From: Eledone cirrhosa
Taxonomy: Eukaryota
DNA length: 64,000 bases
Assembly (NCBI GenBank): GCA_964016885.1
Contig: OZ024740.1
Span: 275,218,001 to 275,282,000, forward strand
Reading direction: 5' to 3'
Of the stretch, positions 13,480 through 58,324 are shown piece after piece. Position numbers and translations under genes: made by a program. The notes beneath the pieces were generated by a model that saw only the letters and a program-made list of their open reading frames with translations, had not been told where the DNA came from and did no database searches. Numbering within the stretch: the stretch's first letter is position 1; every line of letters begins with the position of its first letter.

Positions 13480-13705
13480 ACGTATGAACAAATGGCCCGA
13501 TTTGAAGCTGTGCCGGTGAGGAACACTGGCTTTGAGGAACAATCAACATGTTTCTAGGTCATTACCCTTCATCAGGACTGTATAGCTCTGCCAGTCAGTT
13601 GAATGGTTGAAAATATATAGTATTTCCAGCGTTGGACAATCAGGTGATGATTGTTAACCGGCATGGCACAGCTTATTATTAATGTTCGATACAACCCATA
13701 TGCAC
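13480..13705 (-). mobile_element. PLE-derived element with HHR motif at 13541-13578
   Basis: Minus strand reads AGTC CTGATGA AGGGT-AATG-ACCTA GAAA CATG T T GATT. A diverged relative in the opposite orientation lies at 14550-14720. Confidence 0.7.
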
Positions 13706-14410: not shown

Positions 14411-14889
14411 TGTACATGTGTATACTTATATTTATGCATAAGCTGTGCTAGGATGAGAAATAAAATTCTAATTTTATTTTTAATATTCAGCAAGACCAGC
14501 CGTAACTCGCCTGGTATGCAAATGAGAATACTCAGCCAATGTATACTTGAGGAAATACTATATATTTTCAAACATTCAACAGACTGGCAGAGGTATACAG
14601 TCCAAATGAAGGGTAATAACCCATAAACATATTGATTGTCAAAGCAGCTTCAAATCAGACCGTACATTTACGAATGAATCAAACATTATTATTAATGTTC
14701 GATATAACCCATACATACATATATGAGTGTATATATGTGTGTGTGTGTATATATATGTATATATGTGTGTGTATATTAAATTTGCTAAGGTAAGATTCTT
14801 TTGTTATCTTAGCGATTTAATTTTCTTTCTAATGCATTATTTGGTTTTGAAAATTATTTAAATATATATATATATATATATATATATAC

Positions 14890-36703: not shown

Positions 36704-36822
36704 TTAAGTACACACTTAATCAACCTTCACTGTCATCCATATATGCACTTAACTTAATTCAGTTGGTAGTAAAACTGACCTTTGGGTAACTGGCCATTCA
36801 CACATCCAATATTACATTTGAT

Positions 36823-37140
36823 TTTCTGAGTTCAAATCCCGCCGAGGTTTACTTTGCCTTTCATCCTTACGGGGTCGATAAAATAAAGTACCAGTAATGC
36901 ACTGGGTAATTGCTGGCCTTGTGCCAAAAGTAGAAACAATTATTAAATTAATGTGGATTGGCAGTATCGGTAGAGGGTTGGACACCATGCTTTGCAGCAT
37001 AGAGTTACGGCCCTTTATGATCTGGGTTCAAATCCCGCCGAGGTTAACTTTGCCTTTCATCCTTACGGGGGTCGATAAAATAAAGTACCAGTAATGTACT
37101 GTGTAATTGCTGGCCTTGTGCCTAAAGTAGAAACAATTAT
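36823..37140 (+). mobile_element. Tandem SINE-A copies
   Basis: 36823-36943 (truncated) and 36953-37140. Confidence 0.88.
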
Positions 37141-37184
37141 CATTAATGTTCGATATAACTCATATGGGCATATGTATATATGTG

Positions 37185-37266
<82 letters not shown>

Positions 37267-37301
37267 TATATTTATATATATATATATATATATATACAGT
37301 A

Positions 37302-37336
<35 letters not shown>

Positions 37337-37343
<7 letters not shown>

Positions 37344-38107
37344 CAAATAACGAAACGAAATTAAATTTCGTTTCGTTTGTAACTCACTTTTGTATGACTG
37401 ACGCTTAAACAATTAAGTTAAAAATGTACATCCACATATGTATACTGAAATACTAGTATGCATATGAATACACACACGTATACATATGTAGATGTACCGA
37501 GTTTTTCACTGGTCACTTTACTGTGAGTGTCCAGCTATTCTGTATGTAAACACACAGACAAACCGGTTTTTAGAGTCATACTGGTTTTTGAGAAAACACC
37601 TTTCCTCTATTCTACAGAAAGCCAGACAAGGAATATTGAACTAGTTTCGTTGTTGTTACAACTCATCAGCAATATTTACCTATCTTCCGGCCTTTCTAGA
37701 GAATCGTAAAAGCACATATCGTTATATGCTTTTTCTATGAAAATTAGTAGTGGGCAGACTAATTTGCATAGAGCGTGAGTACGTACCGGTTCAACGGAGA
37801 CGATAAAAACAAATAACGAAACGAAATTAAATTTCGTTTCGTTTGTAACTCACTTTTGTATAACTGACGCTTAAACAATTAAGTTAAAAATGTACATCCA
37901 CATATGTATACTGAAATACTAGTATGCATATGAATACACACACGTATACAAAAACCGGTTTGTCTGTGTGTTTACATACAGAATAGCTGGACACTCACAG
38001 TAAAGTGACCAGTGAAAAACTCGGTACATCTACATATGTATACGTGTGTGTATTCATATGCATACTAGTATTTCAGTATACATATGTGGATGTACATTTT
38101 TAACTTA

Positions 38108-38112
<5 letters not shown>
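37337..38112 (-). mobile_element. Retrozyme-like or non-autonomous PLE element: 466 nt monomer x1.3 plus an inverted segment
   Basis: Direct repeat 37337-37484 = 37803-37950. Segment 37950-38112 is the reverse complement of 37409-37571. There is (TA)n on both sides, an internal HHR and no meaningful ORF. Confidence 0.82.
37632..37676 (-). ncRNA. Canonical minimal type I hammerhead ribozyme
   Basis: Minus strand reads AATATTG CTGATGA GTTGT-AACA-ACAAC GAAA CTAG T T CAATATT: 7 bp helix I, perfect core, 5 bp helix II, palindromic ACUAGU helix III and a GUU site. Confidence 0.88.
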
Positions 38113-38143
<31 letters not shown>

Positions 38144-38536
38144 GAAGGAGGTGTAGTAAGGAACCAGGTGGACCATAACCCACCAGAGTACTCAATACTT
38201 AGGGTATATATATATATGTGTGTGTACATGTGCATACTTACATTTATATATCAGCTGTGCTAAGGTGAGAAATAAAATTCTAATTATATATATATATATA
38301 TATATACACTTTTTTTTAGTTATGTAATAAACAACATAAGATAATTATTTCATTTACCAGTGGTTTCTTGAAAGCAAACATATTTGCTTTCAGTCATCAA
38401 AATGAAAAAATCCTGGTGTTTTTATTGAATGTGGATTGGAAAAACAAAAATGTAAGGAATATGAAAGTGAGGCTGGAAGAAGAAGAAAAGGAGAAAAGAA
38501 AAATAAATATATAAGTATAAAAACACACACGCACAC

Positions 38537-38586
<50 letters not shown>

Positions 38587-38588
<2 letters not shown>

Positions 38589-38808
38589 CGAAGGAAAAGT
38601 GGTAAGGAACCAGGTGGACCATAACACACCAAAGTACTCAATACTTAGGGTAGTAGAGTGGGTAATAGGAACAAGTAAGACCCGGACGGCTGAGCTCAAG
38701 CCGTTTCGACGGCTAATTCTGGACTCAGTCCAGAATTAGCCTGGACTCAGTCCAGAATTACCCGTCGAAACGGCTTCAGCTCAGCCGTCGGGATCTTACT
38801 GGTTCCTA
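38587..38808 (-). mobile_element. Family B palindrome with a small duplication at the centre
   Basis: Arms flank CTGGACTCAGTCCAGAATTAGC-CTGGACTCAGTCCAGAATTA. Confidence 0.85.
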
Positions 38809-39970
<1,162 letters not shown>

Positions 39971-39971
<1 letters not shown>

Positions 39972-40795
39972 AAAGTTCTGTTTAAATTGTTGGGATACAA
40001 CAAGCAAATATTTATAACTGATATAAAGCACTCAACAAGTATTTGGAGTAAACATACGATATTAACAAATGGAAACTATATTTATAAAACCATATTTATT
40101 TTATTATACACATTTCAAGGACACCACGTTAAATTATGGTGTGCTTTCATCAGACAAAATACAATATAGATCAGTTTTATAAATAAATATTGACATACCC
40201 TTAAAAAATGCAACCATTACTGTTGGAAGCTCCCGGGTAGTGGAGTTGTTTACTTATATTATTATTAGTATTGGATAATTTTATTTTTAAAATAAGTCGT
40301 TGGGTTACAGAGAAAGAAAAACATTTCTAATTTTATTTATTTTATTTATTCATTTCATCTCAATTGTTAAGTTAACTCAACAAGATATGACTTAGTGTTT
40401 TCGTTCTCTCCCCTTCTCTCAGTCTCCTCCCTATCTCTATATTTTTCTCTTTCTGTTGTTTTGGTATCTCTCTCTCTTTTCTCTCTCTTTTTTCTTTTCT
40501 TTCTTTCTCTCTTTTTCTCTCTCTCCTTTTTCTTTCTCTGTAACCCAACGACTTATTTTAAAAATAAAAATATCCAATACTAATAATAATATAAGTAAAC
40601 AACTCCACTATCCGGGAGCTTCCAACAGTAATGGTTGCATTTTTTAAGGGTATGTCAATATTTATTTATAAAACTGATCTATATTGTATTTTGTCCGATG
40701 AAAGCACGCCATAATTTAACGTGGTGTCCTTAGAATATGTATAATAAAATAGATATAGTTTTATAAATATAGTTTCCATTTGTTAATATCGTATA
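39971..40795. mobile_element. Family A fold-back element
   Basis: Arms about 40053-40316 and 40535-40795, with a pyrimidine-rich spacer and an HHR-like motif in each arm. Confidence 0.85.
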
Positions 40796-41684
40796 TATAT
40801 ATAGCAAAATTCTTTATCTCAAAACGTGTGTTGAAACCGATATTGTTATGCTTTGGGAGGGTCATGTTGCCAATAAGAAACACACGCACCAGTTGTTTCA
40901 CTTCAATTTATTAAAAATTAAATTTATAAATTTAGGAATTTATAAATTTCCGGTTGGTTGGTTGGTTCCACAACCAGACGACTGTTCATATATTGTCAAA
41001 GTTCTTTCGTCACACATTCTGTGACCTCTTCAGTGACTGGGGATTCTTTTCTTTGTTTTTGTGCCTCTCCTTTGTTCTGTCCTACGCCATCTTGTTTTTG
41101 TGTGTGTTGTGTGTTTAGTTTGCTCATGTGTTACATCCGGGTGTCTGTGTGTGTTTATATTTGTTTATTTACATGTTACTGTTTGGTTGTTTGTTCTATG
41201 TGTGTGTGTGTTTTCATTTTGTCCTTAATTGTAAGTTGTGATGTTGCTATTCCATTCATATTTTCTATTTTTTCTATTTAATTTTGGTTGGAGTTCATTT
41301 ATGTTTATTGTGAGTTGTCTAAACATTGCGTCTTTTCTGTGTGTAGATTCTATTTTTATTTCTATGTTCTCTAATTTACCCTTATATTCTATTTTAGCAT
41401 GTTGGTGGAGTACAGATGATTCTTTACTATCTTGAAGCTCTCGCCAGTGTTCATTTATCCGTTCTCCTATACTACGAGCTGTCTCACCTATGTACACTAT
41501 ATTCTTATCTCTACATTGTTCTTCAGTACATCTCATGCTATATGCTACATTTCTAGTTTTACAGTTAATAAGGGGGCTTACAGATTATACATTTCTATAA
41601 AATTTGCTCCTATACAAGGGGTAGGTCCCATTTGTATCATTATTTACCATTTTTTCCCATACTGATTGCGGATTTGGTACGGGT

Positions 41685-42488
41685 GTGTCTCGCATGTGCA
41701 ACCCCAAAGAACTAGAGAGACACATACAACACTTCATCCACCGTATACAGTTCTCTGGTTACAATCAGAGAGATAAAATCAGAGTATATAAAGGAGCCAG
41801 AACCAAATGGGAAAAAATGGTAAATAATGATACAAATGGGACCTGCCCCTTGTATAGGAGCAAATTTTGGAATAGAATAGAAAGAACTAGGAATAAGGTT
41901 AATAGAATAAACTCATGGTGTGATAGCAATAAAGACCAGAGTGTAATGTTCATCAATACAACCACTAGAGGTGAATTAGCTTACAAATTTAGAAGGGCCC
42001 TAGACAAACATAAACTCAATATTAAGATAGTAGAAAGACCAGGTACCTCCATAAAAACACGTATTAGTAATACATACCCTTTTCAAAGACCTCCCTGTAT
42101 AGATAAGAAATGTATAATCTGTAAACTAAGCCCCCATATTAACTGTAAAACTAGAAATGTAATATATAGCATAAGATGTACTGAAGGACAATGTAGAGAT
42201 AAGAATATAGTGTACATAGGTGAGACAGCTCGTAGTATAGGAGAACGGATAAATGAACACTGGCGAGAGCTTCAAGATAGTAAAGAATCATCTGTACTCC
42301 ACCAACATGCTAAAATAGAATATAAGGGTAAATTAGAGAACATAGAAATAAAAATAGAATCTACATACAGAAAAGACGCAATGTTTAGACAAATCACAGA
42401 GGCAATAAACATAAATGAACTCCAACCAAAATTAAATAGAAAAAATAGAAAACATGAATCGAATAGCAACATCACAACTTACGATTAA
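41685..42488 (+). pseudogene. PLE ORF C-terminus: RT thumb, Cys-rich linker and GIY-YIG endonuclease
   Basis: ...FSGY...CIDKKCIIC...CKTRNVIYSIRC...VYIGETARSIGERINEH...RQITEAININELQPKLN. The frame is open but lacks the RT core. Confidence 0.92.
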
Positions 42489-42680
42489 GGACAAAATGAA
42501 AACACACATAGAACAAACAACCAACCAGTAACATGTAACTAAACAAATAAATAAACAAATATAAACACACACAGACACCCGGATGTAACAGATGCGCAAA
42601 CTAAGCACACAACACACACAAAAAGAAGATGGCGTAGGACAGAACAAAGGAGAGGCACAAAAACAAAGAAAAGAATCCCA

Positions 42681-42723
42681 GTCACTGAAGAGGTCACAGA
42701 ATGTGTGACGAAAGAACTTTGAC
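42681..42723 (+). ncRNA. Minimal type I HHR in the PLE 3' region (mirror copy at 40995-41037, minus strand)
   Basis: GTCA CTGAAGA G GTCACA-GAATG-TGTGAC GAAA GAAC T T TGAC. Confidence 0.8.
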
Positions 42724-43200
42724 AATATATGAACAATCGTCTGGTTGTGGAACCAACCAACCAACCGGAAATTTATAAATTTAATTTATAATAAATTGAA
42801 GTGAAAGCAACTGTTGCATGTGTTTCTTATTGGCAACATGACCCTCCCAAAGCATAACAATATATATATATACATATATATATATAAATATACACATATA
42901 TACACACATACATACATACAATATATATATATACATATATATATAAATATACACATATATACACACATACATACATATATATATATACATACATATACAT
43001 ATATATATATATTTATATATATATAAACACATAAATGTATATATTTATAAAATTAAAAAAGTGGAAGGGGTATTCAAATAGTTGGAAATACGACAAATAA
43101 TAAATAAAGACATAAATGTTTATAGCTAATTTAGAGCACTCAACAAAATTCCTGGAGCAAATATTCAATGATAATAAACATATAACTTTGTTTATAATGA

Positions 43201-45714: not shown

Positions 45715-46790
45715 AAAAAAGAGGTGGGTGTGGAAAGGGTAAGGTAGAAAATAAGGGGAATAAGAAAAATAAATAACAGGAAAAAAGTTTAAATATAAGA
45801 GGAGATAAGGGAGAAATGGTATAAGGGTACAGAAAGTGGGTTCGGAGAGTAATAAAAATCGTAGTGGATGTGCGGCTTAATGAGCAAAGAAGAAGTTCAA
45901 GGTGGTTGAGTCATCGTAGGAATGTCAATCCAGTTACAGAGCAGATGTGATTTCAGGTGAGGATAACATCTGAAGATCTCGGTCTTGGAGTTAAGGCAAG
46001 TGGAAGTGGCTTTCAAATTTTGTAGAATTCTGAACTTTTCAGTGGTGCACAAAGAACAATTCTTTGAGCCCCTTTGGTATTCCCTCGAATGGTCTAAATA
46101 GACCAATCGATAGAGTACGGGATGTTTTTGTCTTTCAATTCCCACACCTTATTTGCGAGAGCCGTTGCTGTTCTTTTATCAGAGTGTTTAAAAGAAGCGA
46201 CATGTGCATAAAACCTGGTTTTGAACCTGTCCTGAGTCATGCCAACATATCGTTCACACCTGGCTGGCTGGTTGTTAATCAACGGTGTCAATTTGGCCTC
46301 ATACACAACGGATTTGGTATTAGATTTGCCCTGTAATGGGCATTCTTCCGGTTTGCTGAAACTGCATCCTGGATTTACTCTCGTACGATTAGAGTTGGTA
46401 ATTTTAGACTCCATTGATGGACCGCAAGAGTAACTGATTTTAACTACATTTCTATTAAATATCTTATAATATGGGATTAGGGGGAAAATGTTTGTCTAGG
46501 AGGTCAAGGAATTTCCTTCCTACATTAGTTTTGACAGTTAGAGAGAAGGGGGATGTGTAACCAAATAATTTTCCTTTTCCTATTATTGTGATTAGTGTTA
46601 GGGGGAGGAGTAAATATTTAATATGTTCTGTAAAGCCGCTTTTATTGAGGGCCTTATTATAATAAGGGGCGGATTTGTTAAAGATGTCTAGAGACGAAGA
46701 TAATCCTACGGCTAATATTGGGAATAAGATTTTTAAAAACTATAGGGGGATGGCAAGACTCTTTGTGTATATATCTTAGATTCTCATTCT
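45715..46790 (-). pseudogene. Second Penelope-like element of a different clade (resembles Hydra-type): RT C-terminus plus GIY-YIG, frameshifted
   Basis: YIHKESCHPP, TNVGRKFLDLLDKHFPP, CPLQG...SVVYEA...RYVGMT..RFKTRFYAH..SF, and C-terminal CSLCTTEK..I...LNSKTEIF. The clade name is from recalled motif pattern only. Confidence 0.85.
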
Positions 46791-57916: not shown

Positions 57917-58324
57917 AAGTTCTATTTAAATTGTTGGGATACAACAAGCAAATATTTTTATAACTGATATAAAGCACTCAACAAATATTTGGAGTAAAAA
58001 TACGATATTAACAAATGGAAACTATATTTATAAAACGATATTTATTTCATTATACATATTTCAAGGACACCAAGTTAAATTATGGTGTGCTTTCATCAGA
58101 TAAAATATAATATAGATCAGTTTTATAAATAAATATTGACTATCCGGGAGCTTCCAACAGTAATGGTTGCATTTTTTAAGGGTATGTCAATATTTATTTA
58201 TAAAACTGATCTATATTATATTTTATCTGATGAAAGCACACCATAATTTAACTTGGTGTCCTTGAAATATGTATAATGAAATAAATATGGTTTTATAAAT
58301 ATAGTTTCCTTTGTTAATATCGTA
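57917..58324. mobile_element. Family A fold-back element
   Basis: Arms 58001-58140 and 58186-58324; junction at 58140/58141; (TA)n on both sides. Confidence 0.85.

Follow-up and report, generated by a model that had tools for sequence, protein, structure and literature searches.

A young copy of a non-coding hammerhead family in Eledone cirrhosa, probably written from circular RNA by a Neptune-type reverse transcriptase/GIY-YIG enzyme

The window analysed here is a 64,000-nt stretch of Eledone cirrhosa DNA (assembly GCA_964016885.1, contig OZ024740.1, forward-strand positions 275,218,001 to 275,282,000). At 37340–38115 it holds one copy of a repeat built from a 466-nt monomer, which we number 1–466 along the minus strand (37805 to 37340). 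The copy and its flanks comprise the following features.

37170–37339, no strand assigned: left (TA)n target tract (repeat analysis)
37340–37950, minus strand: long arm, 611 nt, consisting of monomer 322–466 (37950–37806) followed by a full monomer 1–466 (37805–37340)
37340–37405, minus strand: "tail", monomer 401–466, lying between two fixed start sites and present at this end only (terms after PMC8557442 and PMC11167929)
37349–37377, minus strand: 29-nt hairpin within the tail, monomer 429–457 (fold), with 7,062 exact matches in the 3.0-Gb genome
37632–37676, minus strand: type I hammerhead, predicted to cut after GUU, between 37639 and 37638
37775–37853, minus strand: predicted helix GUGAGU (37853–37848)/ACUCAC (37780–37775) in the family consensus fold, closing around the "long" start site, which lies at the monomer junction 37806/37805
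37950–38115, plus strand: short inverted arm, monomer 235–400, ending at the "short" start site, its last 3 nt merging with TA
38112–38141, no strand assigned: right target tract, (TA)15 (repeat analysis)

Repeat analysis reproduced the layout given in the first-pass annotation: a direct repeat with a period of 466 nt (37337–37484/37803–37950; 148 nt, 99% identity), an inverted segment (37406–37571/37950–38115; 166 nt, 99% identity) and TA tracts on either side. The inverted segment is present as described, and its nature is corrected here to that of a second arm, stopping ~66–69 nt short of the end of the first. Where the long arm terminates, at the long start site, it shares a TAT microhomology with the TA tract. 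The monomer has a GC content of 35%, its longest ATG-initiated ORFs are 19 aa (sense) and 50 aa (antisense), and its predicted fold has a z-score of –9.7 against 100 shuffles; the GUGAGU/ACUCAC helix is absent when the window fragment is folded alone. One base differs between the repeats of the copy and two separate it from the monomer of a near relative (L090), so the copy is young, as had been proposed. Carrying a single hammerhead, it is probably unable to release a unit-length RNA, and it is probably a dead end. Nor does it contain the ORF with reverse transcriptase (RT) and GIY-YIG domains that marks an autonomous Penelope-like element (PLE).

Several other repeats lie in the window. Two tandem copies (period ~197) of a very abundant SINE-like repeat (36818–37140) adjoin the left TA tract. 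A TA-flanked element of ~220 nt with an internal inverted repeat occurs at 38142–38206 and 38588–38810; its 20-nt motif is found in 21 of 269 loci examined, often next to ends of family A (the 466-nt family) or of the related families B and C described below, and it may be MITE-like or another PLE passenger. Remnants of PLE-like GIY-YIG frames are present at 41225–42785, with an inverted arm, and at 46094–46495. Fragments of another hammerhead-bearing, pLTR-like repeat lie at 40088–40250 and 58139–58292, and decayed family B-like pieces at 13535–13619 and 14515–14609.

The hammerhead had been called flawless. Every core nucleotide is indeed present, yet the word is generous for a ribozyme with a GUU triplet whose U17 can pair with A14 in the predicted dimer. 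Rfam model HH9 matches 37616–37687 with 37.7 bits (E = 5.8e-7), under the family's gathering score of 52, and at the gathering score no match was returned across six loci. None of 20,000 shuffles of the element contained a comparable type I hammerhead. In helix I, 7 bp are supplemented by a 2-nt bulge and an extension; helix II has 5 bp, and helix III is the palindrome ACUAGU with 1–2 bp; cleavage is predicted after monomer position 167. The further label "minimal" does not hold. PMC4209133 defines minimal hammerheads by a helix I of 4–5 bp, a helix II of 7–8 bp, no real helix III and an unpaired base at the 5′ end of helix II, and by these definitions the 7 + 2 bp bulged helix I, 5-bp helix II and 1–2-bp palindromic helix III make a canonical type I motif.

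Folding energies make the suggested cleavage as a dimer plausible. The predicted monomer fold hides the core CUG (active form +0.3 versus –7.5 kcal/mol), and two copies are predicted to fold as a double hammerhead. For the GUU dimer, a fold with U17–A14 pairing is predicted at –18.4 versus –16.2 for the active dimer. Common variants have U, C or A at position 17, with 294 U, 152 C and 2 G in 448 family A units. Across 13 chosen sequences of families A–D, 6 of 16 pairs show two-sided changes and helix III is invariant; within family A the 145/156 pair flips from U–A to A–U. This covariation was matched by none of 500 shuffles, a control inflated by the relatedness of the sequences.

Genome-wide, the hammerhead pattern shared by the superfamily has 38,959 matches. 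Tandem arrays of family A contain as many as 31 units; its sister families (B, C and D) have periods of ~420–500 nt and a core common to all. Each unit of the short tandem repeat carries a type I hammerhead, copies in the genome are many, and the unit is non-coding, low in GC (the limit being 45–50%) and 466 nt long, just over the range of ~150–450 nt. These are the sequence features of metazoan non-LTR retrozymes, of which the 466-nt repeat would on these grounds be a new family. The literature on hammerheads, retrozymes, Penelope-like elements and cephalopods gave no description of it, in line with the earlier impression that it is not a described cephalopod family; Dfam and Repbase lay outside that search, and it may be catalogued there as an unnamed repeat. 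The text and one supplement of an Octopus repeat-annotation paper do not contain the word "ribozyme". Other loci (L066, 5600–6100; L068, 6200–7200; L207; L063, 6000–6950) contain three or more additional hammerhead repeats that are non-coding and have inverted arms, as well as a 459-nt tandem whose core has decayed, which indicates that the genome holds many retrozyme-like families.

The ends of family A insertions were surveyed at 70 loci on C1, picked by their long end; two of these are one duplicated segment and 13 ran off the stretch. Among the 57 resolved loci, an inverted arm ending at 395–400 was found in 36, a short stub in 8, no inverted arm in 10 and another junction in 3, so that arms stand head to head in 44 of 57. 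Arms begin at two fixed sites ~66–71 nt apart, monomer 466 and 395–400, both in (TA)n. The long end followed by TA has 1,891 exact matches genome-wide; the short-end pattern has 515 in the forward direction, its reverse count being inflated by repeated matches. Over ~155 stretches, many chosen by these very ends, 236 of 245 3′-direction ends lie at one or other site in TA. Arms longer than one unit, expected from the first-pass annotation, do occur, 49 of 65 long arms reading through the cut site. Inner truncations are scattered and have no sharp peak at the ribozyme cut, and we reject ends made at the cut as the main route. Within (TA)n a target-site duplication is unreadable. At one locus outside TA (L270; G000:C1:85.31 Mb), which holds a copy of the triple-G haplotype described below, both flanks carry TAATTCTTTCAGGTA, a possible 15-nt target duplication. 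Three loci (L154, L020, L118) have 29–65 nt of GC-rich foreign sequence between the arms or at the 5′ end, with no source among the loci examined.

Partial tandems, an inverted 5′-truncated arm and a tail at one end are the architecture of PLEs (PMC8557442), and these features, together with a microsatellite target, are what the 44 loci display. In work with a purified PLE, both strands were nicked and extended, and reverse transcription started at two internal sites that bound the tail (PMC11167929). We conclude that the family is almost certainly mobilised by a PLE, as the earlier reading had it. Tandem arrays, inverted termini and the DNA-level growth of older arrays are also what a conventional satellite or MITE spreading at the DNA level, its hammerhead-like motif there by chance, would produce. 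The unequal fixed arm ends with random inner truncations largely refute such an origin, and the covarying ribozyme, strand-asymmetric substitutions and chimeras with other RNAs leave it scarcely credible.

The circular permutation that had been expected of copies made from circles was not seen, all ends being fixed at monomer 466 and 395–400. Since the two internal start sites of a PLE reverse transcriptase do not depend on what the ends of the RNA are, fixed ends are to be expected on a circular and on a linear template alike, and shared fixed ends, proposed earlier as grounds for refuting a retrozyme, are not a valid test. They mark the class of enzyme and are no argument against a circle.

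The genome contains PLEs that could supply this enzyme. Twelve long frames contain an RT, ten of them with a GIY-YIG Pfam match as well, and most have a CxxxxCxxC linker. [quoted passage not shown] Neptune P4 is young and intact: ten of 11 loci fetched are 99.3–100% identical to the eleventh (L268) over 1,482 nt, open frames of 784 aa occur in many copies, and 13,799 P4 ends were counted. No canonical hammerhead was found in the P4 3′ and leader regions scanned. An apparent upstream frame precedes the RT-EN frame in P4 (L267–L268) and in its sister P1 (L062); a frameshift or an intron may connect the two frames. The PLE family P2 (L064, L065, L070) has a hammerhead of its own, with a palindromic AGUACU and U at position 17; its long end bears a 14-mer that is reverse-complementary to the stretch immediately preceding the family A hammerhead, probably by chance.

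P4 is physically joined to the repeat. Twenty-five family A ends lie outside TA, several of them being internal breaks or assembly gaps. Two of the 25 lead straight into sense-strand P4, and at both junctions (L242, L241) the P4 piece extends to P4's own 3′ end and TA. L242 is a clean chimera: a family A arm is directly joined to the P4 3′ end, a piece that over 243 nt matches young P4 at 99.6% identity. Both ends of this locus are long ones, instead of forming a long–short pair. The P4 piece in L241 is 96–97% identical to any P4 compared and its frame is broken; this junction, the weaker evidence of the two, may be a nested insertion. One further junction is P3-like (L222). In L003 one arm consists of family B, from which it follows that template switching between passenger RNAs occurs.

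The start sites have counterparts in the PLEs. TATC follows the long start in P4 and in families A–C, and a predicted helix encloses the long start in P4, B and C (GAGUGAG/CUCACUC versus GAGUGGG/CCCACUC, a compensatory change), as one does in the family A consensus fold. P4's own two ends lie 39 nt apart; its tandem-junction pattern had no matches, and the junction was read in L267. P1 has a tail of ~66 nt, which matches family A better than P4's 39 nt does, and similar helix strands, but its predicted fold lacks that helix. Neptune P4 or its sister P1 is likely to be the helper, for which the evidence is unusually direct.

Homology between retrozymes and pLTRs has been found in Xenopus (10.64898/2026.07.22.740005), and the monomer could likewise be the pLTR of a coding PLE family that escaped sampling, given that 150 of 10,596 genome-wide GIY-YIG candidates were scored and about six PLE families inspected. 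The monomer, however, closes on itself head to tail in ORF-free arrays of up to 31 units, none of ~155 family A stretches shows it running into an ORF of its own, and its resemblance to the 3′ regions of P1–P5 is limited to microsatellites. Homology to the pLTRs of P1–P5 was set aside, and we regard it as very improbable that the monomer is simply the pLTR of another coding PLE.

Whether the enzyme copied a circle or a linear multimer was approached through variation among units. Divergence is 1.1% between units within an arm and 1.1% between the two arms of a locus, against a mean of 7.6% between loci (1.2% for the nearest loci), and two-armed arrays of 20 and 26 units differ at 0–1 positions across both arms. 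Variants fixed array-wide showed an excess of A>G over T>C in a first count (25 versus 7, none of the 25 with a 5′ G). With 60 more loci (144 of 151 loci assessed) the figures became 26 versus 11 overall and 6 versus 4 in the new loci. On a tree of 104 loci the excess is 44 versus 18 for branches with up to 8 loci (p = 0.0006), 49 versus 30 for all branches, and 9 versus 5 for terminal branches of new loci; in the held-out loci (6:4; 9:5) it is non-significant. Single-unit variants are symmetric (37 versus 34), in contrast to the array-wide ones (Fisher p = 0.02).

This pattern fits ADAR editing of one monomer that was then copied many times; it also fits selection for G–U wobble pairs. The A>G excess lies in paired positions (34:16, versus 15:14 in unpaired ones), and at paired sites C>T versus G>A is 17:14, which does not mirror wobble-pair selection. 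A depletion of 5′ G, as ADAR should cause, is borderline at best (p = 0.05 to 0.44), and the strong neighbour preference of the first count weakened with more loci. Among non-fixed family A variants, in RNA sense, G>A exceeds C>T (104 versus 67, partly from duplicated units), which could reflect RT errors or cDNA deamination.

A rival reading is that the family is a non-autonomous PLE passenger copied from linear, uncut multimeric read-through transcripts, with long arrays growing by DNA duplication and the ribozyme only trimming transcripts. Insertion of PAc in vitro is independent of hammerhead cleavage (PMC11167929), and homogeneous long arrays that could serve as sources are present. In L115 two variants are shared by the terminal units of both arms and by no other unit, which points to a heterogeneous multimer as template. 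Higher-order duplications with periods of 8, 4 and 2 units in L178, L021 and L073 show arrays that probably grew at the DNA level. Three clustered A>G changes define a subfamily of 69 units at 7 sites; this triple-G haplotype is thus not exclusive to one insertion, as was first considered, and a homogeneous 17-unit array could have been its linear template. Linear copying nevertheless has difficulty in explaining a new three-change haplotype in 18 identical units per arm with zero new mutations, and it predicts RNA editing private to single units, whereas the A>G excess is array-wide only. We consider it unlikely as the general mechanism.

A different way of building tandems from linear RNA would be for the RT to jump serially between ribozyme-cut monomers, from the 5′ end of one at 168 to the 3′ end of the next at 167. 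Both clean haplotype switches within arms (L276, L079) have intervals that begin directly after nucleotide 167, a hint that ribozyme-cut ends are involved, and 5′ truncations are in mild surplus at 160–180 (9 of 111 versus 5 expected, p = 0.06). Just 4 mosaic arms were found in ~160 loci, however, and two of them have other breakpoints and do not fit; frequent mosaics would be expected from the several haplotypes present in the RNA-type run X6 described below. Truncations have no sharp peak at 165–170 (2 versus 1.4 expected), and no ancestral recombinant haplotype with a 167/168 breakpoint was found. Serial jumping is therefore improbable. The genomic test of circular copying is suggestive, not conclusive, and we judge that a circular template probably served as the main route, a choice over the linear multimer that we infer from these patterns.

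Sequencing runs provide a view of expression. Run X6, which is not on record as RNA, contains an 812-nt contig that skips the 3,655-nt GT–AG intron of a ribosomal protein gene at a depth of ~3,070; run X1 reads through that intron. The spliced contig identifies X6 as RNA-type. Its family contigs (depth ~167) bridge both the cut site and the monomer junction and could be passive read-through; strand, level and circularity are unreadable from contigs. They represent several haplotypes, their variants differ from the window copy, and these make up 4–45% of the depth in DNA run X1 (minority haplotype). In runs X4 and X5 the monomer also closes into a cycle of 466 nt, but these runs have no exon cover of the test gene and are uninformative on RNA.

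On balance, we favour the view that the window holds a young copy of a non-coding hammerhead family written from circular RNA by a Neptune-type RT/GIY-YIG enzyme. In the proposed cycle, an array with at least two hammerheads would be transcribed, and the ribozymes would cleave as a dimer through ACUAGU. The released unit would be ligated into a circle, in which a single hammerhead is predicted to lack activity. Both (TA)n strands would then be nicked by a Neptune dimer, which would begin reverse transcription at the start sites on either side of the tail and run round the template for a varying number of turns; the resulting pair of cDNA ends would finally be joined.

More speculatively, the family could be a viroid-sized circular RNA parasite, unrelated in sequence ancestry to its helper, that mimics the start-site helix of a hammerhead-less Neptune, is copied in repeated turns by both protomers of the enzyme and has ADAR edits written into every unit; in this full form we think the proposal possible yet doubtful. 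If true, ADAR edits would be carried from circle to DNA, and RNA editing would drive the heritable evolution of a family with ~39,000 hammerheads. The contrast between array-wide and unit-private A>G is in itself a genomic read-out that could separate rolling-circle from linear copying in any animal. The mobilising enzyme of animal retrozymes and the circle as template are still open in the cited literature, as far as the available texts go (PMC7229834; 10.64898/2026.07.22.740005). Here a candidate pair can be named within one genome: an RNA of 466 nt whose start sites are mapped, and a Neptune protein that is young and intact. Since an in vitro PLE system exists (PMC11167929), the question of the helper is directly testable.

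Compared with the metazoan non-LTR retrozymes described in PMC7229834 (axolotl HHR_Amex1/newt satellite 2), family A is alike in its low-GC non-coding tandem units with a type I hammerhead, its weak palindromic helix III, its range from dimers to long multimers and its thousands of copies; the unit is slightly longer, 466 nt as against 150–450 nt. Two fixed starts, inverted arms and TA targeting, all present here, are not described in the available text of that paper, in which the words "inverted", "cephalopod" and "octopus" do not occur. Cervera & de la Pena (2020, PMC7229834) call PLEs only a "strong candidate" for the mobilisation of retrozymes. Li, Clavereau & Pollet (2026, 10.64898/2026.07.22.740005) treat animal retrozymes as non-autonomous PLE derivatives that co-occur with Neptune/Poseidon and likely use their enzymes; in 35 genomes (31 from vertebrates, 3 from insects and 1 from a coral), their evidence is that the two occur together and that there is homology to pLTRs. 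By their usage of "active", the window copy, with its one hammerhead, does not qualify, and many other family loci do. Our overall conclusion, that retrozymes are PLE passengers, is the same. The present case differs in that pLTR homology is missing for the families examined and the link consists instead of the footprint, the chimera and a predicted common helix, and in a candidate helper without a canonical hammerhead; it suggests that retrozymes need not descend from the pLTR of their helper.

With EN+ PLEs (the Neptune clade and PAc Poseidon; PMC8557442, PMC11167929) and non-autonomous Chlamys elements such as MRC1, family A shares partial tandems, an inverted 5′-truncated arm, a tail at one end, microsatellite targets and two internal RT starts. 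It differs from EN+ PLEs in having no ORF and a tail of 66–71 nt rather than 30–40 nt, and in that the whole element is one self-closing, ribozyme-bearing unit. What is added to these systems here is the full PLE footprint on a retrozyme, together with a physical link to a young, hammerhead-less Neptune.
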